Shown here in pieces: positions 1 to 64,000 of a stretch of 64,000 nt of DNA; within the stretch, counting starts at the first letter, position 1, and the number at the start of each line of letters is the position of its first letter. Source of the DNA: a virus. Made by a program: the position numbers and the translations under genes. The notes under the pieces are model-generated. The model did not search any database. It saw only the letters and a list, made by a program, of their open reading frames with translations, and was not told the origin of the DNA. The stretch lies in IMG/VR virus record IMGVR_UViG_3300023276_000008, positions 20,952 through 84,951 of that record; one strand, 5' to 3'.

Positions 1-65
1 AAGTTTTGGGCTATAAATCCGCTAGTGCCAGTTATTAGCACTCGTTTTCCGTTTAGGTCGATCAT
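1..65 (-). CDS. 5' end (partial) of NAD-dependent epimerase/dehydratase (SDR family, nucleotide-sugar enzyme)
   Basis: Manual translation from ATG at 65: MIDLNGKRVLITGTSGFIAQN, a Rossmann GxxGxx motif; runs off the window edge; sigma70-like promoter directly upstream. Confidence 0.75.
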   Translation of the reverse strand, partial: MIDLNGKRVLITGTSGFIAQN

Positions 66-71
66 TGAAGA

Positions 72-100
72 AATTTAGCACGATTGCGGGTAATGGTCAA
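72..100 (-). promoter_or_regulatory. sigma70-like early promoter TTGACC-N17-TAAATT, ATG 6 nt downstream
   Basis: Minus strand reads ttgacc attacccgcaatcgtgc taaatt tcttca ATG. Confidence 0.65.
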
Positions 101-146
101 GTAAATAGTTGTAATTATCTTACAAACCAACTAAATATAAGGGATT

Positions 147-680
147 ATGAGTGATGATATCCTTTCCGAATTTGACGACCTTGATTCTAAAGACCTTGAG
201 AATCCAGAGAATATTGTGAATGTCTTGATGGGTAGTGCAACATTTCCGTCCGATTCAACACCTTCTAGAAAAACTATGAATGTTGAAGACTTGGATGAAT
301 CTGATATTGATGAGTATGTCGTAAAACAAACTGCTACTATTATTGAGAATGTAATGGGTGTTGTTGAAAGTATGTCAGAGAATCCAGATTCATTTACTTA
401 TGATGCAAAGGCACTGGAAGGTTATAATGGTTTAGTTAATGCTGCCACAAGTGCAGTTGCATCTCTTAATAAGATTAAATTGGAGAAATCTAAATTGAAA
501 CAACAAAAAGAACTCAAACAAATTGATATTAATAGTAGAGAGAAAATTGCTCTTAATAGAGAAGAGAATAATAAACAAACTATTAAGTTAACAAGAGAAG
601 AGTTTATTGCATTAATGAGTGATAAAAATGATAATACTGATAATACTGATAATGATAGTATTAAAACAATAGATGTATAA
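147..680 (+). CDS. probable terminase small subunit (T4 gp16-like)
   Basis: 177 aa; acidic N-terminus, central helices (ALEGYNGLVNAATSAV), coiled coil and C-terminal LTREEFIALM, resembling gp16 architecture; TAAATA at 132-137. Confidence 0.5.
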   Translation: MSDDILSEFDDLDSKDLENPENIVNVLMGSATFPSDSTPSRKTMNVEDLDESDIDEYVVKQTATIIENVMGVVESMSENPDSFTYDAKALEGYNGLVNAATSAVASLNKIKLEKSKLKQQKELKQIDINSREKIALNREENNKQTIKLTREEFIALMSDKNDNTDNTDNDSIKTIDV

Positions 681-702
681 TTATATAATATTATTATAAC
701 TA

Positions 703-2957: not shown

Positions 2958-3355
2958 TAAAAATGCTTGTTATCGTATATTGTTTGATTGGTTATATCCG
3001 CATGTATGAGGGATAAATATTCTGGTTTTATATACTTAATTTGTGTGCCCGATTCAATCAAAAAAGGAGCACCCTCAAATTTGTCTACATTACATAGATA
3101 TATTACCCACCAGAGCTTTATATCATTATATAATCTATATGCAATAGTTGGTAGCGCAGTTGGAGCCTTTATTGTTTCCAATTCAATGAATTCCCCATCA
3201 ATATCACCAAAATCCAATTTATTTAATATATTATAAACATTGAATTCTTTATCTTCGATTGAATATTTATACACCTTGAATATTCGATCATAATGCGATA
3301 GGGACACATTATCTATACCATCTACATCGTTTCTAAATTTTCCTACTTCTGTCAT
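2957..3355 (-). CDS. gp53: baseplate wedge subunit (gp53-like, LysM-like)
   Basis: IAYRLYNDIKLWWVIYLCN matches the gp53 IA..lYg...lwWvi...N signature. Confidence 0.7.
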   Translation of the reverse strand: MTEVGKFRNDVDGIDNVSLSHYDRIFKVYKYSIEDKEFNVYNILNKLDFGDIDGEFIELETIKAPTALPTIAYRLYNDIKLWWVIYLCNVDKFEGAPFLIESGTQIKYIKPEYLSLIHADITNQTIYDNKHF

Positions 3356-4158
3356 TATTTTATGAGGCTTGAATCTTCTGTTATTAGGGGTGTGAACACC
3401 ATCTGCAATTGATATGCTTCTGGCAATATACCAGAACCTACCATACGCTGAGTACCTAATCCATTAAGCGAAAAGTTACTGCAATATGCCCAAGGAAGAT
3501 CTCTATATCCTGGGATTTTGATCTTACATATTCTACTTGGCTCCATAAATATAGAAGTCTTTCTAGTTGGTTTATTAATTCTTGCTAACTCTCTCACTAA
3601 GTCAATATTTTTATCATATCCTTTAGTTGAGCTAGTGTTTAATAATGTGAATGTCACTGTTATATCACTTGCCTTTTTTCCAAATTGTTGATATTGAGGT
3701 GTCTCTGGATATATAGTTCTACTTTGATCCGATAGACTCTCAAGGGCTGATAGATTTTTTGACCTTACTGCTCCAGCAATTACACCACCAAGTTCTCCCA
3801 TGAATCTAAATTCAGAATGAATATCAGATAACTTATCTCCAATTGCAGCAAGACCTTGCCCATTACCAACATTTCCCATTAAATTATCACTAAATGAATT
3901 TGAATAACTAATGTAGTTTGTGTCAAAGAATGGAAATGTATATGTATCTTCCTTTTCCGTATCATATAGACTATCATAGAAGGCTTTACCTGCTTCTGTG
4001 TTAACACCCTGTTTGATCAGATTCCTAGCCTTTCGAACAACACCCAAATCTTTCATTCGATGAAATTGTATGTGAATTTTGGGACAATCCTTCAGTAGTT
4101 CAGTATCATTAGTATTGATACACCACGGAAAGTCCTTAATTACGTCAACGGTAGCCAT
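3355..4158 (-). CDS. baseplate tail-tube cap/initiator (gp48-like)
   Basis: Tube-fold-like C-terminus (ITVTFTLLN...P..CKIKIPG...AYCSNFSL...LPEAYQLQMVF); position in baseplate cluster. Confidence 0.5.
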   Translation of the reverse strand: MATVDVIKDFPWCINTNDTELLKDCPKIHIQFHRMKDLGVVRKARNLIKQGVNTEAGKAFYDSLYDTEKEDTYTFPFFDTNYISYSNSFSDNLMGNVGNGQGLAAIGDKLSDIHSEFRFMGELGGVIAGAVRSKNLSALESLSDQSRTIYPETPQYQQFGKKASDITVTFTLLNTSSTKGYDKNIDLVRELARINKPTRKTSIFMEPSRICKIKIPGYRDLPWAYCSNFSLNGLGTQRMVGSGILPEAYQLQMVFTPLITEDSSLIK

Positions 4159-4166
4159 ATATTTAT

Positions 4167-6038
4167 TTAGTAACTGTAAGGGCTGTTGGAATAACTATCT
4201 CTATTATTATTGGCAGCTAATTGAGCCACATTAGATTCCTTTGGTGCTGGGAGAGACATTGGAACAATTGCTGCACCACCACCACTATTTTCTTTTTCTG
4301 CAATTATTTTAGTATATTGTAATAATATATTCATCTGCTCAATTTGCTTCATTAAAATCTTATTGGTTCTTTGTACATGGACTACAGCATTACCACCTTT
4401 AGCACCTTCCATAACTTGTTGAAATGCTCCCCCTGTCTTCATACCAACAACTTCATCTTTATTGCTGAAGGGATATACATTATCTCCTTTAACAATAAAG
4501 TCTTGCATCTCTTTCTTAGGAGTAGCCATCTTAGATATTACATGTGAACCAAACCCACTAACCATTTTTTTAGATAAAAAGTTATTAACCAACATACCAC
4601 CAGCTTTTTTGCCAGCGATGTCGCCAAATACCCCACCTAGAATAGCACCAATGGCGTTACCTGCCACTGGAACCACTGAGCCTAATGCTCCACCCAACAC
4701 AGCACCCAAACCTGCTCCAGCTATACCAGTCACACCCTTAACAACTCTAGTACCTGCTCTCAGATTCAGTTGCTTAGTATCAATTTCGCCATTTGCGTGT
4801 TGTTGCTTTAGTTTCTTTAAATCATTGTGAGTTAATAAGCTTTCAATTAAAGTCCCTATTAATGGCACACGTCTAGCAATACCACCTAAAAGTTTTGATG
4901 GATTTTTTGATACAACACCAAGTGCCTTTTTAAATAATTTCTGCGCAGGACCAAATGCCATCTTTCCAACTGATTTAACACCTTTTACTGCCGCCCCACC
5001 AACTACCTTTATGCCTTTTGCTGCTGTCCCACCAACTGCCTTAGCAGTAGACATAGCTTTACCACCAACTGCCTTAGCAGTAGACATAGCTTTACCACCA
5101 ACTGCCTTAGCAGCGTTCCAAACACCCTTCGCTGGGTTCTTCACAAACTCAACAGCCCTTTTTACAACCTTCTCAGCTTTATCTTTAAGACCTATAATAG
5201 AATCAATAATCCCATTAATAACCTTACCAATACTACCAGTGAGCTTGCCAATAGATTTTACCAATGCTGTTGCAGAAGGTAATTTTCCCAATACTTTGGC
5301 AACCACTGCACCTATCTTCTTACCTAGACTAATAATTTTACCAACAACTTTATTGAAAATACCTTTAATGGTTTTCCATAACGATGCTATCTTCTCTCCT
5401 ATAACTTTGAGATATGGTTTTGCCCATTCTGAGATTCTTCCGAATATTTTGGCAACAAATTTACCAAATCTCTTCATGAATCCCCATATCTTGGTGAATA
5501 CCTTAACTAACACATCCTTAATCTTAGTAAACACTGTTTTAAGTGTACTGGATATAGACTTAGCCATTTTGATAATTGACTTACCAAGTTTACTGTTCTT
5601 AAAGATCTTCCAGACCTTTTTAGCCATTGGTATAATCTTTCCAGATACAGCCATTAATGCAGCTATGATTGAACCAAGACCTAATCCTTGGGCGACATCT
5701 TTCACCACACCACCAACCTTACCACTTCCTTTAGAGGTAGATTTCTTTTTAGTAGTTTTAGCTTTGAGGAATGTATCCTTTTGGGACTTCTTCATCATGT
5801 CCACATATTTTGCAGCAAATATATCCGCAACAACAGCTATATCAGTCTTATCACGACTCGATATGGATTTTCTACCCTTCTTTGTATCAAAGGAACTTCC
5901 CTCACTACTTTTTACAATATTTTTGTCTACAAGTTTAGACCCACCAGAGCTATCTGAGTCTTTATATGCCTCAGACAACTTCTCAGTAGCCTGTGTTTGT
6001 CCTTGCAACACTTCAAGTAATTTAGCAGTAATGTCCAT
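4167..6038 (-). CDS. tape-measure-like / baseplate hub protein (gp29-like)
   Basis: 623 aa, Lys/Gly/Ala-rich amphipathic repeats, glycine-zipper segment GAGLGAVLGGALGSVVPVAGNAIGAILGG, C-terminal DFIV...PFSNKDEVVG. Confidence 0.6.
   Translation of the reverse strand: MDITAKLLEVLQGQTQATEKLSEAYKDSDSSGGSKLVDKNIVKSSEGSSFDTKKGRKSISSRDKTDIAVVADIFAAKYVDMMKKSQKDTFLKAKTTKKKSTSKGSGKVGGVVKDVAQGLGLGSIIAALMAVSGKIIPMAKKVWKIFKNSKLGKSIIKMAKSISSTLKTVFTKIKDVLVKVFTKIWGFMKRFGKFVAKIFGRISEWAKPYLKVIGEKIASLWKTIKGIFNKVVGKIISLGKKIGAVVAKVLGKLPSATALVKSIGKLTGSIGKVINGIIDSIIGLKDKAEKVVKRAVEFVKNPAKGVWNAAKAVGGKAMSTAKAVGGKAMSTAKAVGGTAAKGIKVVGGAAVKGVKSVGKMAFGPAQKLFKKALGVVSKNPSKLLGGIARRVPLIGTLIESLLTHNDLKKLKQQHANGEIDTKQLNLRAGTRVVKGVTGIAGAGLGAVLGGALGSVVPVAGNAIGAILGGVFGDIAGKKAGGMLVNNFLSKKMVSGFGSHVISKMATPKKEMQDFIVKGDNVYPFSNKDEVVGMKTGGAFQQVMEGAKGGNAVVHVQRTNKILMKQIEQMNILLQYTKIIAEKENSGGGAAIVPMSLPAPKESNVAQLAANNNRDSYSNSPYSY
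5029..5113. repeat. 33-bp tandem repeat (about 2.6 copies) encoding AKAVGGKAMST
   Basis: ccaccaactgccttagcagtagacatagcttta at 5029-5061 and 5062-5094, partial third copy. Confidence 0.9.
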
Positions 6039-6053
6039 TACTTGTATTTAGTA

Positions 6054-6779
6054 TTAATCCTCTCGTTCGAAGAATAATGTCTCAAAATCAACTAACTTGC
6101 CCTTAACAGTAAGGAGCTTTTCATCATAATCACGAATAGTGGACACAAATTCATGTATATCATCAGTGACAGAGGATGGTAGAGTTTCTATAATTTTCAT
6201 AGTAGTATCAATTGGAATCTCATCGATGATAATATCTTCTCCATTGAATGTGATGCTCTCTACAAATTTAGGTAATTCATATGCTAGAATGATACCAGTA
6301 CATTTACCAATATCATCTTCCCCAACTTTATCAAACTCACGAATGGAAGATTTGTGATATCTAACATCAGTATCTAGTGTGGGAATTCTGAGTTTGATCT
6401 CATATGCATCATATTCGAGAGTTTGTGGTTCAATAACAGCTTTTGAAAAATTATCTCGCAATGCTCCAAGAGTAACTTCCTCGTCTACCTTAAAGTCTGC
6501 CCCCTTCTCAATAAGTTTCATCTGGATTACAATAGGAATCCTATCAAGGATTGTAATATTGCTCGTACTTCCAGTAACATTTTCTTGAATGAGTTTATCA
6601 ACTTCTAACATGAATTTGTTAATAGATGTGATCCCTTCAAGTGTGCTGGTTACAAGAGTCTTCTGCTGTCCAAATGAAATTTGGCTCACCTCTAAGCTAT
6701 CTGAATAATTGCATTCGAATGTGGATGTGGCAACATCTTGCTTGATTGTTGCTAGGAACTGTTTAACTGTATCGCTCAT
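6054..6779 (-). CDS. baseplate hub assembly protein (gp26-like)
   Basis: ISFGQQKTL...ITILDRIPIVIQMK...IKLRIPTL...IIETLPS pattern as in gp26; start taken at MSDTVKQ. Confidence 0.5.
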   Translation of the reverse strand: MSDTVKQFLATIKQDVATSTFECNYSDSLEVSQISFGQQKTLVTSTLEGITSINKFMLEVDKLIQENVTGSTSNITILDRIPIVIQMKLIEKGADFKVDEEVTLGALRDNFSKAVIEPQTLEYDAYEIKLRIPTLDTDVRYHKSSIREFDKVGEDDIGKCTGIILAYELPKFVESITFNGEDIIIDEIPIDTTMKIIETLPSSVTDDIHEFVSTIRDYDEKLLTVKGKLVDFETLFFERED

Positions 6780-6783
6780 AGTA

Positions 6784-7548
6784 TTATATAGTTGAATTGG
6801 TCTGTGTTGCAAGCTCATTTTCCCTATCTGACAGTATAATATCCAATTCTCTTGGAGTTCTAGTCATGACATAATTGGAGTCAGGCATTTGTTTTGATAT
6901 TCCATATACAATGGACGCTAGGCTCTGATAATCATATATATTGAATATTGGTACAATAAATTCAAATATGTCATTTGTATATGGGTTGATTGTTTGGGAC
7001 TCGATTTGAGGGTGATTAAAAACAACACATTTACTCACTTCTTGTGTTATATAATTGTCGATGGATCTGATAACATCTGATGGTATTGCGTCAACTGAGG
7101 TTATATCTTCTCTACCAATCTTCTTGGATTCATTATCTTCTAAATGGATGCTTTCTATAGCATCTCTATATACCTCATCAACATTGTCGCTATATAATGT
7201 ATCTGCTGGTTTGATGGTGTACACATATCCTGAATGGATTATAGTAGTTGAATAGTCATCAGATATGTGTTCCTTTAAATTGTTGAGTATTAACGATATA
7301 AGAACCTTCTTTTGTGTTCCTGTCACTGACACCATGTTGATACTGTGGTCGATGAAATCACTTGCTCCTTTCAACAGGGCATATAACTTCTTCATCTTAG
7401 TATCACATCCAAATAGCTTGTCTTCCAGATACTCTACAATCATTGGATAACAACTATCTTCGTATAGTAGACTAAGGTTCCTACAGTCTGTGAGAGTAAA
7501 TTCCTCCATACCAAATACCTCCCCATTTATAATTGTAACACTCTTCAT
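6784..7548 (-). CDS. probable baseplate assembly protein (gp26/gp51-like)
   Basis: C-terminal YVMTRTPRELDIIL resembles gp51-type motif; context; start at MKSVTII. Confidence 0.4.
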   Translation of the reverse strand: MKSVTIINGEVFGMEEFTLTDCRNLSLLYEDSCYPMIVEYLEDKLFGCDTKMKKLYALLKGASDFIDHSINMVSVTGTQKKVLISLILNNLKEHISDDYSTTIIHSGYVYTIKPADTLYSDNVDEVYRDAIESIHLEDNESKKIGREDITSVDAIPSDVIRSIDNYITQEVSKCVVFNHPQIESQTINPYTNDIFEFIVPIFNIYDYQSLASIVYGISKQMPDSNYVMTRTPRELDIILSDRENELATQTNSTI

Positions 7549-7549
7549 A

Positions 7550-8149
7550 TTAATACACTGAGTAATTTTCGTAACCAAAGGTGACTGATTTTATGCGCAG
7601 TGTGGAATCGTCGGTATCATAGTTCAATGACTGTGCTTCTACAGCATGAGGAAACACTCCTGTGTATTTAAAAGTCTTACGAAGACCTCCATTGGTATTA
7701 TATTGTTTAATAACAACATCTCCTTTGAGATCGTTGTCTGTAATCAACCCCTTGCGTCCAATAGCAATTGTCCATAGTCTAAAATAAGTATCAACAATAT
7801 CTACTTCAGTCTCAATGAAGTTTATAGCTAAACTCATAAATCCAGTACTTCGTTGGGCAAGACCATATCCTGCTAAATATCCACCAGAATTTCCATTTGG
7901 AGATACTTCGAATGCTGATACATCAATTTGTTCTTCTGGTATATTAACAGATTGCGCCAAATACCTAGAACTGGATGACACTGAGCCGCCATTAAACACT
8001 CCAGCTTGTCCATACATAGGAGGGACGAGATTGGATGTAATATTTGGAGCTTTTATAAAGGTGACTTCAAATAATGATTCTAGGGGGATGAAGAAGGATG
8101 GATCATTACTGAATCTATCTAAAAACTGTTGTGCGCTCGGAGTTGACAT
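7550..8149 (-). CDS. tail tube-like protein (gp54/gp19 family)
   Basis: YLAQSVNIP...LAINFIET...YFRLW...VVIKQY...YTGVFP...SVTFGY tube fold; TAAATA-N6-ATG. Confidence 0.7.
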   Translation of the reverse strand: MSTPSAQQFLDRFSNDPSFFIPLESLFEVTFIKAPNITSNLVPPMYGQAGVFNGGSVSSSSRYLAQSVNIPEEQIDVSAFEVSPNGNSGGYLAGYGLAQRSTGFMSLAINFIETEVDIVDTYFRLWTIAIGRKGLITDNDLKGDVVIKQYNTNGGLRKTFKYTGVFPHAVEAQSLNYDTDDSTLRIKSVTFGYENYSVY

Positions 8150-8173
8150 CAATTCTATTTAGTGGGGCAGTAT

Positions 8174-8213
8174 AAAAAAGGGAAGAGTAATATTGCTATT
8201 ACCCTCCCCTTTA
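8174..8213 (-). terminator. rho-independent terminator after tail tube gene
   Basis: GGGGAGGGTAAT-loop-ATTACTCTTCCC followed by T6 on minus strand. Confidence 0.8.
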
Positions 8214-8235
8214 TGCATCGCGCTGTGTTAAAATC

Positions 8236-8769
8236 TTATGAAAAGTCTTCGTAGAAGTGATATGCGAATGTACATGGGAAGTTTTTAATCTCACCTGTAC
8301 CATCAGCAATTTGATAATCGATCTCACCTACGTTACGAATACCAACACCGATAAGCTTAATTGTCTCGACAGTAGCTAGTTCTTTATCAATGACCTCTAG
8401 GATCATATAACTATCTCTACCAGCCATACCGTATTCACCAGTTGTTGTTTCGTTATTAAATACTGCTCTTGATGCACCTTCGAGTTTCCTACGAAGATCC
8501 ATTTGTTCATCTACATAGAACTCAATCGTATATGCTTCAGAATTTGGGTATGAGGAAGAACCTGCTACGTTGAAGTTCTGTCCTGCGTAGTTAGCGTTCT
8601 TGTTTGAGATCTCTCTAGCTGGAAGTGCTGCACTTCTTGCATAGATTAGGTCATCTTCTCCAGAGAATGATGCACCTTCGATAACAATTTGCTTTACTCG
8701 AAAGTGGAAATCGCGTGAGAATTGCTTCATGACGGCTTGGTTGAAAAAGTTTTCGATAGTCGTTGCCAT
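8236..8769 (-). CDS. gp19: tail tube protein
   Basis: ARSAALPAR...YAGQNFNVAG...YTIEFYVDE...VGEIDY...FPCTFAYHFY; strong terminator downstream. Confidence 0.8.
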   Translation of the reverse strand: MATTIENFFNQAVMKQFSRDFHFRVKQIVIEGASFSGEDDLIYARSAALPAREISNKNANYAGQNFNVAGSSSYPNSEAYTIEFYVDEQMDLRRKLEGASRAVFNNETTTGEYGMAGRDSYMILEVIDKELATVETIKLIGVGIRNVGEIDYQIADGTGEIKNFPCTFAYHFYEDFS

Positions 8770-8773
8770 ACAC

Positions 8774-9631
8774 TTATTTAGCTATTAGGTTGGATATTTT
8801 ATCATAAATATCACGATAAGATTCATTATATTTTAATATAAGTAAATTCTTTTTATATATACAACAATATTGGCGTTTGAGTGAGTCATTCTCCATCTGC
8901 CTATGAAATGAAGATATTCCCCCAAAAAACTCAATTGGTTCATAATGTTGTCTTCCGTTATATTCTATGCATATATTATAGTCTGGTATGTAGAAATCAA
9001 ATCTAAGAAGTCTTTCATTTCTACAATCCTTGAAGGTGTATTCTTCTATATAATCAATATCAATAGAATTTAAAATATTTCTTACCAATAATTCTCCATT
9101 TGATTTAGTATCACATCCACAGGTGGTTCTCTTATCATATAATACGTGATGCATCAACCTACCAAATTTATTACCACATTTACATTGGAATGTGTGAGAT
9201 TTATGAGATCCTTTATAATCATCTACAAGAGATACGTTTAACTTTTCTAATCTTTCATGAATATCATTTATATTCTTCAAACACCCACATGATGATACTT
9301 CACCAGACCAAATATTATTTATTTTAGATTCGAATTCAACACCACAAAAACACATAAACTTATGGCTATTTTTACTTTGAGTATATGGAGATAGTAATAT
9401 TATACCAATATCCAATGTTTTGCCTTCGGCATCTTTTTGTGTAATGGTATTGACACACCCACATGATGTAGTATGACCATTCCATATACTACTTATTCTA
9501 GAACTAAATACCGCACCACAATGACATTGAATGTCATGGATATTCTTACTAGAAGTGTATTTAGATATTAACTCAAACCCTAGATTTTCGCATCTATTTT
9601 TTGCAATATCTTGTGTAATTATTTTACCCAT
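8774..9631 (-). CDS. free-standing putative homing endonuclease (repeated Cys-rich Zn modules plus PD-(D/E)XK/Vsr-like nuclease)
   Basis: Three CxCG..F......SCGC-type repeats, then SNGE...EYTFKDC...LRFDFYIP...IEYNGRQHY...D..K..YC. Confidence 0.8.
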   Translation of the reverse strand: MGKIITQDIAKNRCENLGFELISKYTSSKNIHDIQCHCGAVFSSRISSIWNGHTTSCGCVNTITQKDAEGKTLDIGIILLSPYTQSKNSHKFMCFCGVEFESKINNIWSGEVSSCGCLKNINDIHERLEKLNVSLVDDYKGSHKSHTFQCKCGNKFGRLMHHVLYDKRTTCGCDTKSNGELLVRNILNSIDIDYIEEYTFKDCRNERLLRFDFYIPDYNICIEYNGRQHYEPIEFFGGISSFHRQMENDSLKRQYCCIYKKNLLILKYNESYRDIYDKISNLIAK

Positions 9632-9671
9632 CGAGCCATATACTTATTTAGTTATTGGTCATGTATTATTA

Positions 9672-9953
9672 CTAAGCTTCAGGCACATTACCTACATCAC
9701 CTTGCATCATAGCTTGGAAATCTGCATAGTCTTCAACAATGTCTGTGCCAAAGTTATATACTGCTATATCTTTCTTCCCCGATTCATCAGTATTCCAGAT
9801 ATATAGATACCAATTATCCCTATGTTTAAATGGTGCTTCACCAGTCATTAGTTCATGAGGATATTCAAAACCTTTATCCCAACCATGAGGTGCTTCCATT
9901 GAAGACTCTACTAGTAGAGACATGGCTTGTTTGTTTTTGTCATATTTGTTCAT
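9672..9953 (-). CDS. hypothetical protein (possible head-packaged protein)
   Basis: 93 aa; TAAATA upstream; N-terminus ends ...LLVES. Confidence 0.6.
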   Translation of the reverse strand: MNKYDKNKQAMSLLVESSMEAPHGWDKGFEYPHELMTGEAPFKHRDNWYLYIWNTDESGKKDIAVYNFGTDIVEDYADFQAMMQGDVGNVPEA

Positions 9954-9976
9954 CTTAATGATATTTAGTGTTTATG

Positions 9977-10765: not shown

Positions 10766-10786
10766 ATGTCTATTTAGTACAGACAT

Positions 10787-10819
10787 AAAAAAAGCACTAG
10801 GCTTTTATACCTAGTGCTT
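10787..10819 (-). terminator. rho-independent terminator after tail sheath gene
   Basis: AAGCACTAGG-loop-CCTAGTGCTT followed by T-run on minus strand. Confidence 0.85.
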
Positions 10820-10840
10820 GAAATTTTTCTTTATGTCAAC

Positions 10841-13141: not shown

Positions 13142-13169
13142 AAATGTATTTAATCATTTTCGATTAAAA

Positions 13170-13772: not shown

Positions 13773-13776
13773 ATAT

Positions 13777-50847: not shown

Positions 50848-50859
50848 ATATATTATATT

Positions 50860-53717: not shown

Positions 53718-53748
53718 TGTCCGTATTTAGTGGACAATTTACCCTAGA

Positions 53749-55152: not shown

Positions 55153-55162
55153 TTCTCCCACC

Positions 55163-55190
55163 ATTCTACTAGCTTTTTGGAGCTTGTCAA
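55163..55190 (-). promoter_or_regulatory. sigma70-like promoter TTGACA-N16-TAGAAT for the helicase operon
   Basis: ttgaca agctccaaaaagctag tagaat; back-to-back with TAAATA (55192-55197) of the divergent gene. Confidence 0.65.
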
Positions 55191-55202
55191 CTAAATACTG
55201 AT

Positions 55203-58031
55203 ATGTCAGATTTCACATTCGACCAATTCACCAAACGACTAGTGTTTGCAGAGAAGAAAGAAACCTTCAATCCTGCGAATATGGAGTTGAGTCCAGAGAG
55301 TATAGCCGATATAAAAGGAATTAATGATTTTATCCATAATAGTTTAGACGATATCATTAAGGATGGTTTATCCTCAGTAGATCTAGAAAATAGAGTGACC
55401 TATAATGGGAATACAAAGGCATTATATGTCCCAATTTGGTTGACCGCAGTTATGAAGAATGTAATTCTTGGTAAGGTTGATATGCCTGAGAGATTGAATG
55501 ATCAGAAACAGGTAGTCACTAATAATATGATCAATGACGCTCATAAGATCTTAGATGAAATCAGGGTGTATGATGGCAAAATTCTTTCGGACTTCTCTAT
55601 AGATAAAAATAGTTCTGGAGAATATAATATTCCCAAAGGTTCAAATGTCAAAGCTCTCACAACTCTCATTAAGAATATTGTAATGAGTTTAGCACAGTTG
55701 TCTGGTACAGATAGTAAACACGCAGATACATTATCTAACTATGCGAAAAGGATCACCCATGTACCCACATATGCTACTGATTCAGATGGAGATTCTCCAT
55801 TCACATCATGGCTTGGTGACCTTAGAGTACGTGCCAATCCACGAAAGAAAGTTTCCAAGATAAATGATGATGGATCTTCTACAGAGGAAGTAGATGTAAA
55901 ATATACAAATGCTCAACGTAAAAAGGATCTAGCAAGAGATCTTGCTACCATAGATGTTCCATATGATAACTTAACGAAAGTTCAAAAGAATCTACAGACT
56001 ATAGCAACACAACTGAGGAAAGGGTTGTTGGGTAGTGTGAAGGTTCAGCGAATGATGAACAAGGATATAAATCGCAGAAAGATAATAAAAGCTATTGATC
56101 GTAGTGTGAATGTACTTGATAAGGAAAATGATGATATGAGTCGAGGTATTGACGATATGTTCGGTAATTTAGATCAAATATTATCATCTGCAACTGATTT
56201 AGATGTAGATAATCAGGCTATATCAGCATTTAGTGGCAAAGGGTCAATGAATGCTATTAATATAGTCCACACTGTTTTGATAGCTCTATATGGGGTGAAT
56301 CCAAGTAGTGATGAATTGACTCAATATGCTACTAATTTGTTACAGGCTTCTGGTAGATTACGTGAAAGTATGTCAAAAAATGACATTACCACATTTAATG
56401 ATTTTGATGATATACTACAAGGTAGAGATGAAGTGATACCAAACGTTAATCTTGGGTCTGCATATGATAGATCAAAGAAAATTATAGAACATGCAAATAA
56501 TGCAGAATCTGACTACTATTTCGACCCCTCTGATAATAACGATGTATCATCTATGGCACACATGCTCGATTCTGGACAAGTGACAGACTTCCTATATTCT
56601 GTAATAAAAGTACATCTTCAATTCGCCCTAGGTCATTATGTTAATGATGATCAAGCTTCTTATCAGGCAGACTCTGAATTGACTATACCTGAACAGAAAA
56701 TGATTATTCGTGCAGTAGCTATAAATCAAATACATGTCTCTGGAGGATATCCAAAGGGAATATCTAAAGCTAAATACTTAAATGATCATATCAATAAATT
56801 ATATGAAGATGATCCAGACTTAGCATATAAAATATTAGATCATAATAATGCTCACCACGAATTAGTTGACGCTAATGCCGCAATTGAATCTCAGCAGAGT
56901 AGCGATAGGCAAGAACGATTGGCTCATGAAAGAGATGTTGCCGTTGGTGATGTTATAGAACTTGCGAAGGAAGATGGTGCTGGTGACGCGAAGGTTAATA
57001 GTATAAAACGTAAATTGTATGCAATATTAGAGCCTTTAAACTCTGTAGAGGGTATTCATGACGCTAAAAGAAAGTATTTACACGATAATGCCTCTAGATT
57101 CACTGATATGGAGAATAAACAGTTTGTTTCTCCAGAAGCTATTGACAACCAACTCAAAGAGATGATTAAGTGGATGGATGGTGAGTTCAAAGCTATGGGA
57201 AATCAGTTAGTAAGATCTCATGAAGTTATGTCAGAGGTTGATAATACTGGTGGTATTCCTAGTAGAGATGTGGCGCGAGTAAATCTACACGGAACTTATG
57301 ATGATATACTTTTTGATATGATGGAAGATAAATCTGGAAGTAATCTTCTAGAAAAATCAGTTCTTTATAACGGAACTTCCGCATTTTCAATATTTAATAT
57401 GGGGTCACAGAACGTACATAAGGAATATAGACCATATTATAATTATATATATGATGTAGATCCGAATGCCTTTGAACGTATGCTTGATAACCGTGACGAA
57501 AAATCAAAAAATATATATATTGATAGTTTCAACGAAGTAGATCCTAATTCCCTATATCTTTTCAAATCATTTGATGATTTTGTGAAGAATTCTGAAGATG
57601 GGGACTCTGTACATACAGCATTATCTCCAGTTACTACAGAATTAGAGGGGTTGAGATCTACATTACCGAAGGCAATGAATGTTTATAATGCTATTATAGC
57701 ATTGGAAGCTATTCAAGAGAGATCTGATCGTGGTGAAAAAATACAGCGATCTGAATTCGCTAAATATTCCCAAATCGCACTACACAATATTTCTAAGGGT
57801 CGTGGTCGAGCACCAGCAGGACATGTTGCACGAACACAGGCTGCGGAGAATATGTTGGATGCTAAGAAATATGGTATAAATGAAAATTCTAATGATATAT
57901 TTGATCAATATATGACACCATTCCATAAACGAAAGATGGGTCAGCGTGAAGACCGTGGAATCATATCTGAAAATTCTAGTCTACATAGGAAACGCCAATC
58001 ATTGGGAGATATGATTGACGATATTATATAA
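55203..58031 (+). CDS. large hypothetical helical protein (possible internal head/ejected protein)
   Basis: 942 aa; MSDFTFDQFTKRLVFAE leader; TAAATA-N5-ATG. Confidence 0.7.
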   Translation: MSDFTFDQFTKRLVFAEKKETFNPANMELSPESIADIKGINDFIHNSLDDIIKDGLSSVDLENRVTYNGNTKALYVPIWLTAVMKNVILGKVDMPERLNDQKQVVTNNMINDAHKILDEIRVYDGKILSDFSIDKNSSGEYNIPKGSNVKALTTLIKNIVMSLAQLSGTDSKHADTLSNYAKRITHVPTYATDSDGDSPFTSWLGDLRVRANPRKKVSKINDDGSSTEEVDVKYTNAQRKKDLARDLATIDVPYDNLTKVQKNLQTIATQLRKGLLGSVKVQRMMNKDINRRKIIKAIDRSVNVLDKENDDMSRGIDDMFGNLDQILSSATDLDVDNQAISAFSGKGSMNAINIVHTVLIALYGVNPSSDELTQYATNLLQASGRLRESMSKNDITTFNDFDDILQGRDEVIPNVNLGSAYDRSKKIIEHANNAESDYYFDPSDNNDVSSMAHMLDSGQVTDFLYSVIKVHLQFALGHYVNDDQASYQADSELTIPEQKMIIRAVAINQIHVSGGYPKGISKAKYLNDHINKLYEDDPDLAYKILDHNNAHHELVDANAAIESQQSSDRQERLAHERDVAVGDVIELAKEDGAGDAKVNSIKRKLYAILEPLNSVEGIHDAKRKYLHDNASRFTDMENKQFVSPEAIDNQLKEMIKWMDGEFKAMGNQLVRSHEVMSEVDNTGGIPSRDVARVNLHGTYDDILFDMMEDKSGSNLLEKSVLYNGTSAFSIFNMGSQNVHKEYRPYYNYIYDVDPNAFERMLDNRDEKSKNIYIDSFNEVDPNSLYLFKSFDDFVKNSEDGDSVHTALSPVTTELEGLRSTLPKAMNVYNAIIALEAIQERSDRGEKIQRSEFAKYSQIALHNISKGRGRAPAGHVARTQAAENMLDAKKYGINENSNDIFDQYMTPFHKRKMGQREDRGIISENSSLHRKRQSLGDMIDDII

Positions 58032-58708: not shown

Positions 58709-59489
58709 TTTTATTTTTGTAATTTTGTTTTATTGTTGTAAGAGCTTCATCCTCGGAAACCTTTGGAATATCTAATAGGTTGATTCCGTGTTTTGTTTCG
58801 AATACATCTAACCCAGCTCTGAATAGTTTAGTCTGATCGTTAGCACTTGCAATCACTGATTGTTCTGGCGACCATCCATCGTCACCAATATATTCCCATG
58901 AACTACTAATATCTGCAAAGTACCAGAAATTTGGATGAAGATTCTTTTGAATACCCATATAAGTATGATCAATGTGTTCGATAGCGTTGTAATATTTATT
59001 ATCAAGTAATCCAACCTCCTCTATATAATGCAGAGTGTAATAAGAGAAGGCTCCTACACAGTTTTCATAAAATTGTACTGTTGTGTCATTAAATGAGACT
59101 GCTAGTTTTGGGTCAGGAACACCTTGTCGGGTTTGGTTGGCTTTACCATGTTGGGAGAAGTTTAAGTGATGGATTCCACTATCTTTGGCAGTATGGATGT
59201 ACATATCAAACACATTTGGATCTTTAATATACATATCATCTTCAATTAAGAAGAAATCTGTACATCCTCTAGCGTATAATTCCCTAAGACATGCATTCTT
59301 AGCAAACCCAACTCCCCTACCTCCCAGATTCATACAATTGGATGATTTTGTGACTTCGTTTGGGGTTCCGTCATTAACTATCACCATCTCGTCAACTACT
59401 CCAGTTGGGATTGATTTGATAAGTTTCTGTAAAGTGCGGGGTCTGTTATATGTCACTATACCCACCCCAATTTTTCTTTTATTTGTCAT
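58677..59489 (-). CDS. glycosyltransferase family 2
   Basis: VGIVTYNRP, VIVNDGT, GVGFAKN, FLIEDD, VGLLD..Y.NA.EH.D. Confidence 0.88.
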   Translation of the reverse strand: MTNKRKIGVGIVTYNRPRTLQKLIKSIPTGVVDEMVIVNDGTPNEVTKSSNCMNLGGRGVGFAKNACLRELYARGCTDFFLIEDDMYIKDPNVFDMYIHTAKDSGIHHLNFSQHGKANQTRQGVPDPKLAVSFNDTTVQFYENCVGAFSYYTLHYIEEVGLLDNKYYNAIEHIDHTYMGIQKNLHPNFWYFADISSSWEYIGDDGWSPEQSVIASANDQTKLFRAGLDVFETKHGINLLDIPKVSEDEALTTIKQNYKNKNENLYSYPTK

Positions 59490-60226
59490 TATTTTCCAAA
59501 TCTCTCGTCGATTGCGTTCTGTTTTGCTCTGATTTCTTTATCTGCGATAGCTGCTGCTTCTTGATCCTGCATCATATCTTCCATGAGGTTTAAATTGTCT
59601 CCATCTAATACTGATTCAGTGGATTCTACAATCTCGCCTTGTGAGTCAACAATTGACGTAACAAACTCAAGACGCTCTTTAACAGTATCACCAAAGATCT
59701 CTAATAGAGCTGGACAATCTTCTTTGGGGAAGAAAACATCACTCTCGAAGTTATCAGTATATGATTTGAATATAGAGTCGTATAGTTCATCGATTTCTTT
59801 AATAAACTCTGGATCTAAATCTCTTCCTTCACGCTCAACCATCGGTATATGACTTGCTCTTGGTTGATAGAAAATGATATCATAATCTCGCATACGTTCT
59901 CTAATTAAACCTATCATTGCTGACATGGTTAGATCACTAATTCTTCCTTTTGAATTTGCGTGTAGACTGTAAATAAGAACATCTACGAGACATCTATCAA
60001 ACACCAAATTTACATTTGATGGACTATTATCGAGTTGTTGTAGCATCGCTGCTAAGATAGTGCTTTGAGTATCTTCATCAGTCATTGACGAATGCTCAAG
60101 TTGTTTTGCTTTTAGTACATCTCTAAAATCCTTTTCGAATTTTGTGAAACTTCCATATTCTTCTAGTAATGCTTCAACTAGAGTTGTTTTTCCTGTATTT
60201 GCTGGACCTGTAAATGCGATCTTCAT
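59489..60226 (-). CDS. P-loop kinase/ATPase (AAA_28 / dNMP-kinase-like)
   Basis: MKIAFTGPANTGKTTL, VFDRCLVD...YS, YDIIFY, R.LD..F...ID. Confidence 0.8.
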   Translation of the reverse strand: MKIAFTGPANTGKTTLVEALLEEYGSFTKFEKDFRDVLKAKQLEHSSMTDEDTQSTILAAMLQQLDNSPSNVNLVFDRCLVDVLIYSLHANSKGRISDLTMSAMIGLIRERMRDYDIIFYQPRASHIPMVEREGRDLDPEFIKEIDELYDSIFKSYTDNFESDVFFPKEDCPALLEIFGDTVKERLEFVTSIVDSQGEIVESTESVLDGDNLNLMEDMMQDQEAAAIADKEIRAKQNAIDERFGK

Positions 60227-60232
60227 AACTGA

Positions 60233-60261
60233 ATGATATCATCATTCCTATCCTTTGTCAA
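60233..60261 (-). promoter_or_regulatory. sigma70-like promoter TTGACA-N17-TATCAT, ATG 6 nt downstream
   Basis: ttgaca aaggataggaatgatga tatcat tcagtt ATG. Confidence 0.75.
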
Positions 60262-60320
60262 GTTATTATTTATATAATAAAGAGCTTGTAAATCCTTATA
60301 TTATATGTAAATAATAGTGT

Positions 60321-61112
60321 ATGTCAAACAAGAGAACTGCAAGACGAAAAGCTTTGAGTGCTGAAGCTTCTGAACTTAACAACGCATTCAAAGGTAATTT
60401 CGAATTAGGCGATATTAATATTAAAGAGCCATATGAGATGACTGAAACACAACTCGATTGTCTATATCAACTAAATGCCCCAAAGACTAATATGGTTTTT
60501 GTGGATGGTCCAGCGGGGAGCATGAAAACTTTCCTAGGTGTATATAGTGGTATTTGTCATCTACAAAACACAAACAATAATATTCGGAATTTAATTTATA
60601 TACGTTCTGCGGTGGAGAGTTCTTCAACTTCTTTGGGAGCAATTCCTGGAGAAATCGAAGATAAGTTTTCTCCATACTCTATTCCTTTAAAAGAAAAGTT
60701 ACGAGAAATTATTCCAGCTAATGAAGTGGATATGTTATTTCTAAATAAACATGTTGAGGCGATACCTATTAACTTTGTTCGAGGAAGAACATTTAAGAAT
60801 GCTATTGTTATTGTTGACGAAGCTCAGAACATGAATAAATCTGAATTGACTACGATTCTAACTAGAATTGGTTCAAACTGTAAATATTATGTGTGTGGAG
60901 ATACTTTCCAAAGTGATATTCGTGATAGTGGATTTGAATATATTAAGAATGCCTTCGATACGGAACATTCTGAGAAGAATAACATCTTCACTCATGACTT
61001 TGATGTATCAGATATCTCTAGATCAAAGATCTTACAACACGTTACTGAGGTTCTACAATCTAAAGCTGAAAAGCAGCGAGAACGTAAAGAACATAAATTA
61101 ATTACAGAGTAA
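60321..61112 (+). CDS. phoH: PhoH-family protein
   Basis: GPAGSMKT, RSAVE....LGAIPG...K..PY, F.RGRTF.NA.VIVDEAQN, LTRIG, GD..QSD. Confidence 0.93.
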   Translation: MSNKRTARRKALSAEASELNNAFKGNFELGDINIKEPYEMTETQLDCLYQLNAPKTNMVFVDGPAGSMKTFLGVYSGICHLQNTNNNIRNLIYIRSAVESSSTSLGAIPGEIEDKFSPYSIPLKEKLREIIPANEVDMLFLNKHVEAIPINFVRGRTFKNAIVIVDEAQNMNKSELTTILTRIGSNCKYYVCGDTFQSDIRDSGFEYIKNAFDTEHSEKNNIFTHDFDVSDISRSKILQHVTEVLQSKAEKQRERKEHKLITE

Positions 61113-61149: not shown

Positions 61150-61152
61150 CGT

Positions 61153-62691
61153 CTATTCTAAAACTTGCCCCGACCAATTAACCAGTCTATCAGCATCTTC
61201 GTCAGTGAATCCCCATTCCTCTTCCTGCAATACATTACTCTCCATATATTCGACAATTATATCGTCTATGTTGATTAATGCGTCTGTAACAGAGCTTGCA
61301 AAGTAATTGTGGTTGCGATCAAACTCTATGAACATCTCTTCGTGAGGTTGTCCATCATATTCTTCATATATACTCTTAGGAATAAACCTAAATGGGTTAT
61401 ATTCAACATGATCGGCATATATGTTTAGGAAATCGTCTTCGTAAAAGTACTCCCATGTCTTTTGATCCTTATCTCCTTCGTAAATGAATGATCTTTCGAT
61501 TATAGATTGGAGTAGACCATCATTATACTGACCATCCATTCCTAAAATTGCTTTTCTTGTGAGAACATATAGAACTTCGTCTGGTAATGCCTTTAAATTA
61601 GGTAATTTATTAAAATCTACCTTAGTTAGTAGACCAAATACATCATTGTCATGCTCATCTAGAGTAAGTTCCATGTTTTTCATCTTATCTGATATACCTT
61701 TGAAGTATATAGATGCATCATATTCAGGTTCTCTTGATAATTGGTCATAATATGCACCTTCTGCTCTATCATATCCATCCTCGCCACTTCTATCAATCTC
61801 GAAATTAAGTTCATCTTCAACAAATTTCTCAACTATCTCATAAAAATCGTCTTCAGCTCGACCATGAATATCCTCACCCATGATATATTCGAATTCTGGA
61901 CCTTCTCCATACACTTTTGCAGCAGGATAAATCATTATTCTACTCAAAGGCTTCTTCAACATGTCTTTACCACTCTTTAAATCACTTTCCTTAACCAAAT
62001 ATGCTGCTAGATAGGGATATTTCAGAGATGCTGCTAGAGTTTGTGCATTACAACCAGCTTCAGTGTGATCCGCATCCATTTTTTTGGAATTGTAACGCTT
62101 ATTTGTTTGTTGGATACAGGAAGTCCAGTCTCGATCTGTTGATCCTCCGATAACATCGTAGGGGTGCTTACTGATTACAACGTGGCGAGGCTCGTTAATA
62201 CCACTACTAAACTCTTGATCTCTCAATTGTGTTTGATAGTCCACTGCGTAGTCTAGCATTGCTTCTGCTTCGATGTAATCATCGGGATCTCCGCTAACTT
62301 CATCACCCCCTTCAAACTTAGAAAGTATTTTCTTTAGAGCTTTGACTAGTTTAACTGGTCTTCCTCTCGAATCCATACCAGTATTGTCTGCATATAGTTC
62401 AGGACTTGTCTGTATGTCATGACTAGCGAGGAATGTGTGTATGATTCTATATGTATGATTCTTAGATATCCTAATAACATCTTCATCAGACACTTTTTTA
62501 CCATTACTTTCGCCATATTTCCCAATAATTTTACGATGTTTGCCATTAAATTGCTCTTTAAAGGTATTTTTATAGTCCCATAGCTCAACATCTTTAAGGA
62601 TATCCTTGAATTTTGAGATGGAAATGGCTTCATTTAATAGATTACTGCCAGTTAATCTGGAAATACTCTTTAATTTTCTCAAATTGAACAT
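61153..62691 (-). CDS. hypothetical protein (ISKHPYDV.G.STDRDWTSC motif)
   Basis: 512 aa; central motif plus AYLV...PLSRI.I.P. Confidence 0.7.
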   Translation of the reverse strand: MFNLRKLKSISRLTGSNLLNEAISISKFKDILKDVELWDYKNTFKEQFNGKHRKIIGKYGESNGKKVSDEDVIRISKNHTYRIIHTFLASHDIQTSPELYADNTGMDSRGRPVKLVKALKKILSKFEGGDEVSGDPDDYIEAEAMLDYAVDYQTQLRDQEFSSGINEPRHVVISKHPYDVIGGSTDRDWTSCIQQTNKRYNSKKMDADHTEAGCNAQTLAASLKYPYLAAYLVKESDLKSGKDMLKKPLSRIMIYPAAKVYGEGPEFEYIMGEDIHGRAEDDFYEIVEKFVEDELNFEIDRSGEDGYDRAEGAYYDQLSREPEYDASIYFKGISDKMKNMELTLDEHDNDVFGLLTKVDFNKLPNLKALPDEVLYVLTRKAILGMDGQYNDGLLQSIIERSFIYEGDKDQKTWEYFYEDDFLNIYADHVEYNPFRFIPKSIYEEYDGQPHEEMFIEFDRNHNYFASSVTDALINIDDIIVEYMESNVLQEEEWGFTDEDADRLVNWSGQVLE

Positions 62692-62695
62692 GATT

Positions 62696-63535
62696 TTATG
62701 TAATACTCTTTAATTGGTATGTATTTGGGTCGATTAGACCTGTATGCATCGTATTATTTATCATATGCATCATCGGGATAGCAAAATCAGTTCCCTGCAT
62801 TTGAAAATGTTTGATGTTCTGCGGATTTGGTGGAATAGCCATATATTGCTCTCCATTATATTCTACACCACCTTCCAGAGCTTTAAATACGTTATCTGAA
62901 TTGGGATCTTGTTGAAATGCTGTAATATCATCTGCAATATGTCTAGGATTCTCACCAATCTGTAATTGTTGGGTTTGTTGTTGCCTAGCATCATTTCGTT
63001 GTGTTAAAGGATTTTCTCTACCAGCACCATCATTGGTTGGGGTAGGTTGTTGATCATTCGACTGCTGCATATTTGTCGCCATAGGGGTAGGATCTTTCAC
63101 CTGCGAACCATCCTGTGCGCCTTCCTGACCCTCAATTGGTTCTGACGTAGGATCAGCATCTAGAGACGACTTGGATACCCCTTGTTGCTCCTGTTTTGCT
63201 ATCTTCTCAGCACCTATTTCATCCCTCGCAGAATTCACAACATCTAAACCTTTAAAAACCGCATCAGCAGTTGTTGGCATAAACGCGCTTGCTGCTCCTT
63301 TTACCGCTCCTTTTGCGAATTTTTTTAATGATCTAGCAGCAACTTTATCTCTATCTGTATTACCAACCCATTTTTTATCTAATGCATCTCTATTTTTACG
63401 CTGTCTGGCATTTTTATCAACTTCTTCTTTATCAGATATCTCATTAGGTTGTCGATCTCCTGATCCTGCTGGATGTTTAGGTGTGAATCCTTCTCTTAGG
63501 AATTTTAATGTTTCTATCTTACTTAACTTCTTCAT
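62696..63535 (-). CDS. Gln/Pro-rich hypothetical protein
   Basis: 279 aa; MKKLSKIETLKFLRE leader, low-complexity middle. Confidence 0.6.
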   Translation of the reverse strand: MKKLSKIETLKFLREGFTPKHPAGSGDRQPNEISDKEEVDKNARQRKNRDALDKKWVGNTDRDKVAARSLKKFAKGAVKGAASAFMPTTADAVFKGLDVVNSARDEIGAEKIAKQEQQGVSKSSLDADPTSEPIEGQEGAQDGSQVKDPTPMATNMQQSNDQQPTPTNDGAGRENPLTQRNDARQQQTQQLQIGENPRHIADDITAFQQDPNSDNVFKALEGGVEYNGEQYMAIPPNPQNIKHFQMQGTDFAIPMMHMINNTMHTGLIDPNTYQLKSIT

Positions 63536-63962
63536 TTTCTGATGCGTTATTAGTTTTAGCTACATCAATCAATGCATTTAGATCATTTTGGATGAAGGTT
63601 TTTGATATGAGTGCTTTTTTGGCGTTCTCAGATCTATCAGATAAACTAAAGGGAACATTCTTATACGTGTCGCTCCCCATACTTACGTTGAACATAACAA
63701 CAGGTCGATCTTCGCTATTTCCTCCACCCACATTAATTTTTATCATTTCGCTCATTGTTTTTTCTAATTTTATGTCATTAACCGTATTGAATCGTATAAT
63801 ATTATTACCTATAGGTTGAATCTCTGTGGCATGAAGTACATTATATCCACCATTGCCAGTATCTAACTTGGCTGAGATTGTTCCAATCTCTGGTATAGTT
63901 ATGTCTTCTTCGATGCCAAGGACTCTCTTTTCTAGATAAAATTCCTTAAAACTTTGTTTCAT
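63519..63962 (-). CDS. retropepsin-like protease (RimK-associated 'ATP-dependent Zn protease' family)
   Basis: LG..E.I......I.AKLDTGN....LHA..I, E.RPVV, FSLSDRS....LI; MKQSFKEFYLE leader. Confidence 0.8.
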   Translation of the reverse strand: MKQSFKEFYLEKRVLGIEEDITIPEIGTISAKLDTGNGGYNVLHATEIQPIGNNIIRFNTVNDIKLEKTMSEMIKINVGGGNSEDRPVVMFNVSMGSDTYKNVPFSLSDRSENAKKALISKTFIQNDLNALIDVAKTNNASENEEVK

Positions 63963-64000
63963 ACATCTATTTACTCACCACACCCATGATCACAACCATG

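Follow-up and report, generated by a model that had tools for sequence, protein, structure and literature searches.

Where does a late message of a T4-like phage begin, and how far is that point from its first codon? T4 late transcription is the textbook case of a separate promoter and ribosome-binding site, and it employs the gp55 sigma factor, the gp33 co-activator, and the gp45 clamp. The question is raised by IMG/VR record IMGVR_UViG_3300023276_000008, an 84,951-nucleotide (nt) linear viral record (G000; CheckV completeness 41%) of an uncultured marine T4-like phage. We analyzed bases 20952-84951 of this record; this 64,000-nt stretch is hereafter the window, and positions are those of the window unless stated otherwise. 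An earlier note on this DNA had drawn attention to the hexamer TAAATA standing five or six bases before many start codons (TAAATA-N5-ATG and TAAATA-N6-ATG, where N5 and N6 give the spacer length), had taken it for a T4-type late promoter, and had proposed that both early and late transcripts begin at or next to the AUG. For genes with an adjacent box we consider it likely, judging from the motif and its placement, that the message begins on the start codon or no more than 1-2 nt from it.

Gene models are greedy longest-ATG open reading frames (ORFs) of at least 45 amino acids (aa), a procedure that misses GTG and TTG starts as well as small genes. The gene starting at 63962, at the contig end, was left unclassified in the promoter-class, Shine-Dalgarno (SD), and orthologue counts. 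The main comparison is with a complete relative (G001) of 206,590 nt, with 297 genes in the counts.

Is the spacing more than chance?

All 26 sites listed in that note, 18 at N5 and eight at N6, do carry TAAATA at the spacing claimed, and the codon that follows is ATG throughout except for GTG at 34601. Further sites beyond its list lie at 49035 (N5) and 60321 (N7, before the PhoH gene). The check that it had proposed, a distance histogram set against shuffled controls, gives an N5/N6 peak well above background. Among the 113 boxes of the window the distance to an ATG is five bases in 23 cases and six in 11, all other distances from 0 to 30 being represented 0-6 times. Across 100 dinucleotide-preserving shuffles TAAATA-N5-ATG averages 2.35 (standard deviation 1.60, largest 9) and TAAATA-N6-ATG 2.65 (standard deviation 1.53, largest 6), and no shuffle reaches 23 or 11, respectively. 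For the whole 85-kb record (GC content 36%, coding density 95%), 37 N5/N6 matches compare with 6.8 ± 2.7 (maximum 16) in 200 order-1 Markov simulations, and 14 permuted A4T2 hexamers never give more than 12 at any one distance. The peak also appears in 11 related loci and in G001, where 47 of 287 boxes stand at N5 and 15 at N6 (62 versus 17.4 ± 3.9 simulated).

Most matches open genes. ORFs of at least 99 codons follow 25 of the 34 window matches, and the remaining nine open ORFs of 4-41 codons and resemble background. Together with the GTG at 34601 and the N7 site at PhoH, these 25 make 27 promoter-start units in the window. For ORFs of at least 100 codons, the codon after an N5 box is ATG 19 times and GTG once in G000, and ATG 39 times and GTG eight times in G001; after an N6 box it is ATG eight times in G000, and ATG 10 times and GTG three times in G001. 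TTG is outside the 12 commonest codons listed after the box in both records, and no other listed codon occurs more than three times. This enrichment, confined to ATG and GTG, fits initiation with a purine. As a further start-site signature, a pyrimidine directly precedes the ATG at 19/19 N5 sites in G000 and 38/42 in G001, compared with 43/83 other genes.

What is the box?

Aligned sites extend the motif to (A/G)(C/T)TAAATA: among 19 N5 sites, 18 have A or G at box position -2 and nine have C at -1, there are no conserved positions upstream of -2, and there is no -35 element. RCTAAATA occurs 26 times in the 85-kb record, 13 times at N5/N6 before a long ORF; TATAAATA occurs 14 times, once at a start. 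In PMC1524935 and PMC2988020, the T4 late promoter is given as TATAAATA at -13 to -6, and Aeromonas phage Aeh1 has the variant (a/g)CTAAATA, with C at -12 and A/G at -13; Geiduschek and Kassavetis (2010) have “a/gC at positions -13/-12” for Aeh1. G000 shares this extended consensus with Aeh1. The assignment to the T4 family of late promoters is thus supported, with the correction that the consensus is the Aeh1-like RYTAAATA and not TATAAATA. This match supports our inference that the box serves as a late promoter of the T4 family, in the form known from Aeh1. Given the published geometry of the box, five spacer bases would place +1 on the A of the ATG.

As in T4, the G000 box is an A/T-rich -10-type element without a -35 element that stands 5' of virion genes on both strands: the carriers include sheath, tube, baseplate wedge, head-closure, and tape-measure-like genes. 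There are non-virion carriers too: PhoH, an HNH endonuclease gene, and some genes whose function is unknown. Just three of the record's 37 N5/N6 matches, two of them opening long ORFs, fall in the early block, which is the 21 kb of the record before the window; this distribution marks the layout as class-specific.

A gp55-like sigma, which the earlier note had suggested looking for, was found in the complete relative and not in the G000 fragment. The G001 homologue, at 177,897-178,343 (-) of that genome, matches phrog_234 (E 5.7e-27 in the genome search, 1.7e-26 in the protein scan), shows 39% identity to T4 gp55 over 82 aa, and adjoins homologues of gp47 and gp46. This gp55-gp47-gp46 synteny is shared with T4 and is found in cyanophage S-SM2 and Pelagibacter phage HTVC008M as well. 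The parts of G001 to which the fragment runs collinear are about 103-165 kb and 184-187 kb. The gp55 position (about 178 kb) falls beyond the fragment end; the fragment stops before the syntenic site. G001 has in addition a shorter gp55-like gene at 24657-25001 (+), 114 aa long (phrog_234, E 2.8e-12) and lying among small genes, which might serve a second promoter class.

Another likeness to T4 is the gp44 clamp-loader homologue, present in G000 (window 29959-30897), in G001, and in a third record (G002). In T4 the sliding-clamp gene 45 lies directly upstream of gene 44. The 239-aa gene beside gp44 in the window was considered as gp45 and rejected: BLASTP against T4 gp45 gave no match, its alignment is to a sugar-nucleotidyltransferase-type N-terminus, and a single-sequence AlphaFold model (pLDDT 36.4) was uninformative. 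Within 29959-32439 (-), gp44 is preceded by this sugar-nucleotidyltransferase-like gene (30894-31613) and then by a gene at 31615-32439 with a weak nucleotide-sugar epimerase match.

How is the box placed in related phages?

A sheath-protein search of viral contigs returned 38 loci, 15 from a close clade and 23 more distant; spacing at all genes was compared in seven and five of these, respectively, redundant loci being left out. Close-clade loci (sheath identity 53-58%) have the box at N5 or N6 before the sheath ATG in 13/13 of those shown, and their spacers take at least seven different, unrelated forms. Where sheath identity falls to 36-37%, in the sister clade, 16-18 nt separate CCTAAATA from the sheath start ATGGCAAC, and in one locus (L030) the box is 21 nt before the sheath ATG with AAGGAG in between. 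The sheath N-terminus MAT is kept across clades, which shows that this ATG is the real start. Among genes with a box within 39 nt of the start, N5-7 accounts for 50/61 in the seven close-clade loci versus 6/18 in the five sister-clade loci, where the remaining boxes are spread over N8-33. In S-SM2 the box is 15-38 nt before the ATG. In T4 it is 14-35 nt away with an SD sequence in the leader, unlike the 5-6 nt, the absence of an SD motif, and the RYTAAATA consensus of G000; neither phage has an N5 peak. The same box at a clade-dependent distance from the start codon points to a promoter rather than to a translation signal tied to that codon.

Between G000 and G001, orthologues (24-66% protein identity) are box-adjacent in both genomes in 10 cases, in neither in 22, in G000 only in four, and in G001 only in four; five further G000 proteins with a G001 match had no corresponding G001 gene model. 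The spacing is mostly kept exactly, including N7 at PhoH and N5-GTG at a 742-aa gene. HTVC008M, a cultured SAR11 myophage, has a weaker N5 peak (12 of 129 boxes versus about two expected as background). It resembles G000 in having TAAATA-N5-ATG before a subset of virion genes, and differs in that leaders of 18-30 nt containing AAGGAG remain before the majority of its late genes and its proteins are only distantly related.

Where would the messages begin?

The mechanism that we favor is as follows. The boxes would be read by the host RNA polymerase carrying the phage gp55-type sigma, and in the G000 lineage the box would have been shifted against the start codon. With N5, transcription would start on the first base of the ATG or GTG, and N6 or N7 would leave a leader of 0-2 nt. 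The box-adjacent genes of the window, about 26 and mostly virion genes, would then yield leaderless mRNAs whose 5'-terminal AUG the ribosome recognizes directly. A leaderless route serves the 5'-proximal cistron alone, so many genes would need a box of their own. The genes without a box would follow by overlap or tiny gaps, or would rely on A/C-rich, SD-free upstream regions, and a few sigma70-type promoters would be placed likewise against the ATG.

The statement that there is no consistent SD motif is borne out: AGGA, GGAG, or GAGG at -20 to -5 is found in 5/74 genes without an adjacent promoter and 0/31 with one, compared with 8.6% of random 16-mers. The companion statement that internal genes are mostly coupled by TAATG/ATGA overlaps is overstated, as exact 1- or 4-nt overlaps account for only 14 of 85 same-strand junctions in the 85-kb record; seven junctions overlap in some other way, 28 leave a gap of 0-15 nt, and 36 leave a wider one. 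Among genes with no adjacent promoter, 21/71 overlap a neighbor and 13/71 have a gap of at most 10 nt, the others having longer A/C-rich upstream regions. No gene for IF1, IF3, or bS21 was found in G000, G001, or G002. Nothing in these three records thus stands behind a phage-driven switch of the translation apparatus, or behind the suggestion that the phage could shut off leadered host translation.

Several points weigh against a start at the first codon. TAAATA is not itself rare: by our own estimate its 113 window copies are about what composition predicts, so that specificity must rest on more than six bases. A candidate rule for the N6 sites, pyrimidine then purine at spacer positions 5 and 6, is followed by 8/8 in G000 and fails in the 11 N6 sites of G001. 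About 70% of genes have no adjacent promoter. The gp55 gene has no match in the 41%-complete fragment, and a gp45 clamp was not detected with phrog_223 or PF09116 in G000, G001, or G002. Seven RNA runs from two studies, all marine metatranscriptomes, hold parts of G000; our comparison used Logan contigs from four oligo-dT runs of one study over window positions 3000-22999, and gaps in their coverage are uninformative. This material consists of short assembled contigs at 95-99% identity that cannot reveal 5' ends. It does establish that related strains are present in RNA libraries, with some contigs crossing boxes: one covers 12941-13182, and another runs 9883-9635 joined to 8764-8242. Those starts are therefore also covered, whether by read-through transcripts or by DNA present in the library.

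Could the fusion of box and ATG be a by-product of compaction, the late promoters being real but most protein coming from read-through polycistronic RNAs, with leaderless transcripts a minor class? The contigs that span two boxes are in keeping with this, as are the 95% coding density and the 12 of 23 box-adjacent genes that lie within 30 nt of the upstream gene. In addition, box-less genes are evidently translated with no SD, so an internal, SD-free mechanism of initiation must exist. However, the other 11 of the 23 keep N5/N6 although their upstream spacer is divergent or at least 31 nt long, two boxes come just after terminator-like hairpins, and 10 of 14 orthologue pairs retain the spacing even as the spacer sequence changes. 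The sister clade and HTVC008M, moreover, keep leaders in equally compact genomes. On balance we regard this account as unlikely.

TAAATA has, to our knowledge, no complementarity to the CCUCC anti-SD core. It might still act on longer mRNAs as an A/U-rich translation-initiation element, an SD substitute such as an S1-binding site or a stop-restart signal, since 5-6 nt resembles SD spacing, SD motifs are lacking, and the upstream stop codon is the box TAA, or the last TA of the box plus the next base, at 4158, 8769, and 13772. This stop-codon overlap keeps to no fixed frame, however, and sites that are divergent or widely spaced lack it. Such an element would also have to act from 16-21 nt upstream of the same codon in sister-clade phages and from 14-38 nt in T4 and S-SM2; the box is nearly absent from the early block, which has CA-rich leaders, and it equals a promoter consensus already in the literature. 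We consider this explanation very improbable.

Practically no weight is due to chance or to an artefact arising from ORF calling and an AT-rich composition: TAAATA is frequent in the window and nine of the 34 matches open short ORFs only, but the shuffles refute this, permuted hexamers give no peak, and the peak recurs in the 11 related loci and in G001.

A transcription start on or beside the first codon is thus the reading with which we continue, and comparison with known leaderless systems helps to place it. Most middle and late mRNAs of the Thermus phage phiYS40 are leaderless, according to a review (PMC3594737), as is predicted for the late messages of G000. That phage is unrelated, and in the same text its promoter is a host-type -10 element, not a gp55-type one, and changes in IF2 and IF3 levels are reported. 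Among bacteria, a -10 element 5-7 nt before ATG or GTG is described in PMC12340547 for Deinococcus-Thermus, actinobacteria, and other leaderless-rich groups. The sigma70-type cases of G000 and 46 of the 297 G001 genes have this same spacing; in those bacteria it is a cellular feature dependent on the host sigma, whereas G000 has a phage-specific sigma class as well.

Which genes carry the box?

The window combines structural genes (tail sheath, tail tube proteins, baseplate wedge proteins, and a gp14-like head-closure protein) with genes for a gp32-like single-stranded DNA-binding protein, DnaB helicase, primase, PhoH, and the gp44 clamp loader. The T4-type large terminase is 954 aa long, compared with 610 aa in T4. 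No close cultured relative was found: the best terminase match is 34%, partial sheath matches are 30-41%, and megablast returned none.

On the minus strand at the left of the window, ACTAAATA-N5-ATG at 4156-4171 (-) opens a 267-aa gene (3355-4158; N5 also in the G001 orthologue). The TAA of this box is the stop codon of the upstream 623-aa tape-measure-like gene (4167-6038), which has ACTAAATA-N6-ATG at 6036-6052 (-). A 199-aa gene (7550-8149) follows ACTAAATA-N6-ATG at 8147-8163 (-), and a 262-aa gene (9977-10765) follows ACTAAATA-N5-ATG at 10763-10778 (-). Immediately upstream of each is a terminator-like hairpin with a T-run (8164-8200 and 10779-10815, both on the minus strand), giving the order terminator, promoter, and ATG within about 20 nt; a hairpin in this position makes the upstream ATG at 10786 an unlikely start for the second gene.

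A 177-aa tail-tube-like gene (8236-8769) has GCTAAATA-N5-ATG at 8767-8782 (-), N5 again being kept in its G001 orthologue. Between it and another tail-tube-like gene lies an HNH homing endonuclease gene, 8774-9631 (-) (phrog_559, E 3e-49). A duplicated ACTAAATA-N5-ATGGC at 9637-9652 (-) opens only a six-codon out-of-frame ORF, 8 nt before the endonuclease ATG at 9631. Insertion of the endonuclease gene duplicated the late box together with ATGGC, the out-of-frame ATG at 9639 being the leftover. Contigs of two RNA runs join 8764 to 9635, which indicates related strains without the endonuclease gene.

The tail sheath gene (10841-13141) is preceded by ATTAAATA-N5-ATG at 13139-13154 (-), the tail tube gene (13170-13772) by GATAAATA-N5-ATG at 13770-13785 (-), and a 245-aa gene (13777-14514), which starts 6 nt inward of the first ATG, by ACTAAATA-N5-ATG at 14512-14527 (-). 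An exception follows at 14615-16069 (-), where a late box stands about 10 nt before a 55-aa gene (15902-16069) and the next gene (428 aa, 14615-15901) has an A/C-rich upstream region and no box. This 428-aa gene was considered as the major capsid protein gene and set aside: its product has no similarity to the HTVC008M capsid protein and no Pfam match, and it falls in PHROG 16509, of function unknown. When the same protein was compared with genome contigs in search of a host, no relative was returned. Divergent from the gene starting at 16069 (-) is a 99-aa gene (16136-16435) with GATAAATA-N5-ATG at 16123-16138 (+).

Farther along, N6 sites precede a 944-aa gene (19791-22625; AATAAATA-N6-ATG at 22623-22639 (-), N6 also in the G001 orthologue), a baseplate wedge gene (24798-26615; ATTAAATA-N6-ATG at 26613-26629 (-)), and a gp25-like baseplate wedge gene (26631-27116; CCTAAATA-N6-ATG at 27114-27130 (-)). 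A divergent pair occupies 28617-28658, with ATTAAATA-N5-ATG for the gene 27144-28619 (-) and GGTAAATA-N5-ATG for the gene 28656-29201 (+). The 36 nt between the two ATGs are made up of two boxes and their spacers, and a leader fits on neither side. Next come a 228-aa gene (29210-29896) with TATAAATA-N5-ATG at 29197-29212 (+), the gp14-like head-closure gene (33042-33947) with AGTAAATA-N5-ATG at 33029-33044 (+), and a 161-aa gene (34032-34517) with ACTAAATA-N5-ATG at 34515-34530 (-). The 742-aa gene (34601-36829) is the GTG case, with ATTAAATA-N5-GTG at 34588-34603 (+); its G001 orthologue likewise has TAAATA-N5-GTG.

In the right half of the window the box precedes a 263-aa gene (41845-42636; ATTAAATA-N6-ATG at 41831-41847 (+)) and a 300-aa gene (42676-43578; ACTAAATA-N5-ATG at 42663-42678 (+)). 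A second divergent pair, at 45461-45511, has ACTAAATA-N6-ATG for 45128-45463 (-) and GTTAAATA-N5-ATG for 45509-45958 (+). A 273-aa HNH/DNA-binding endonuclease-like gene (46035-46856) is opened by ATTAAATA-N5-ATG at 46854-46869 (-), a 109-aa gene (48706-49035) by GATAAATA-N5-ATG at 49033-49048 (-), with N5 in its G001 orthologue, and a 286-aa gene (52857-53717) by ACTAAATA-N6-ATG at 53715-53731 (-). The remaining sites are ACTAAATA-N5-ATG at 55190-55205 (+) for a 942-aa gene (55203-58031) divergent from the DnaB gene, TGTAAATA-N7-ATG at 60306-60323 (+) for PhoH (60321-61112; N7 in G001), and AGTAAATA-N5-ATG at 63960-63975 (-) for a 147-aa gene (63519-63962).

As the earlier note had suggested, the rule changes start calls in the ORF track, namely at 10765, 14514, 16136, 34517, 34601, and 45509. 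Boxes off the usual spacing or with one changed base are found at 38507 (N15), 40307 (N13), 43591 (TAAATC-N5), 39176 (TAAATT-N5), 9953 (N8), and 147 (N9); these are candidates for weaker variants or for late promoters with a short leader.

Do other promoters abut start codons?

Three sigma70-like promoters had been described as having exactly 6 nt between the -10 box and the ATG, and all three are as described. TTGACC-N17-TAAATT-N6-ATG at 63-100 (-) serves the gene starting at 65 (-). TTGACA-N16-TACAAT-N6-ATG at 45080-45116 (-) precedes a 155-aa gene (44615-45082), whose G001 orthologue has TAGACT-N7-ATG, and TTGACA-N17-TATCAT-N6-ATG at 60224-60261 (-) precedes a thymidylate-kinase-like gene (59489-60226), with the -10 box of the G001 orthologue likewise at N6. 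A further promoter, TTGACA-N17-TAATAT-N7-ATG at 50845-50883 (-), stands before a 227-aa gene (50164-50847). At the DnaB helicase gene, 55152-55190 (-), a TTGACA-N16 promoter has a -10 hexamer, TAGAAT, that shares bases with the first ATG (55164); the start is probably the in-frame ATG at 55152, four codons in, with a leader of about 4 nt.

The early block is arranged differently. Its sigma70-type promoters, TTGAC(C/A)-N16/17-TAnnnT, are followed by CA-rich leaders of 17-33 nt, so the proposal that early and late transcripts alike begin at the AUG is overstated: it would apply to the late genes and not to this block. The early promoters, at 1-21 kb of the record, share a repeated upstream unit, AAGCCCGAAAGAGC-TTGACC-N17-TA(A/G)nnT, and their leaders consist of CAA/CAAC repeats with no SD.

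In G001, TANNNT stands exactly 6 nt before the ATG at 46 of 297 genes, versus a background of about eight. Some 45 of these share AATTAAAACCGAA-N-TAnAAT-N6-ATG. The copies lie over approximately 49-109 kb of G001 (L044-L047), one per small gene and mostly on one strand, and look like a third promoter class fused to start codons; both this motif and its genomic region are lacking in G000. Altogether, 45 late and 59 sigma70-type promoter-adjacent genes are counted among the 297 of G001. As sigma70-type promoters and the N6 promoters of G001 abut the ATG too, the fusion of promoter and start would be a habit of the lineage across promoter classes.

What does this mean for marine T4-like phages?

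The ingredients are known individually: the promoter type from T4 and Aeh1, leaderless phage messages from phiYS40, and -10 boxes abutting ORFs from leaderless-rich bacteria. Their combination, in which late promoters of the gp55 type are systematically joined to virion-gene start codons, was not found in the literature covered. That literature, with subscription journals outside its coverage, held no description of late promoters abutting start codons in T4-like phages, and the word “leaderless” in two marine-phage papers belongs only to citations of GeneMarkS-2.

A wider reading, which we put forward tentatively and hold to be somewhat doubtful, is that one entire clade of T4-like phages, marine and uncultured, has largely abandoned ribosome-binding leaders. 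Three promoter classes (gp55-type, -35/-10, and AATTAAAACCGAA-N-TAnAAT) would each be fused to the AUG or GUG, about one-third of G001 genes would be one-gene, one-promoter leaderless units, and the phage or an SD-free host would depend on 5'-AUG-directed initiation. If this is true, phage expression could be independent of, or favored over, leadered host translation.

For annotators, the box rule helps in the calling of late genes in uncultured phages. In G000 the late promoter appears to double as the definition of the first codon of the mRNA. If confirmed, this would mean that a phage can make its most abundant virion proteins mainly by leaderless expression, that such expression can evolve inside the T4 superfamily, and that it may be widespread in ocean phages.

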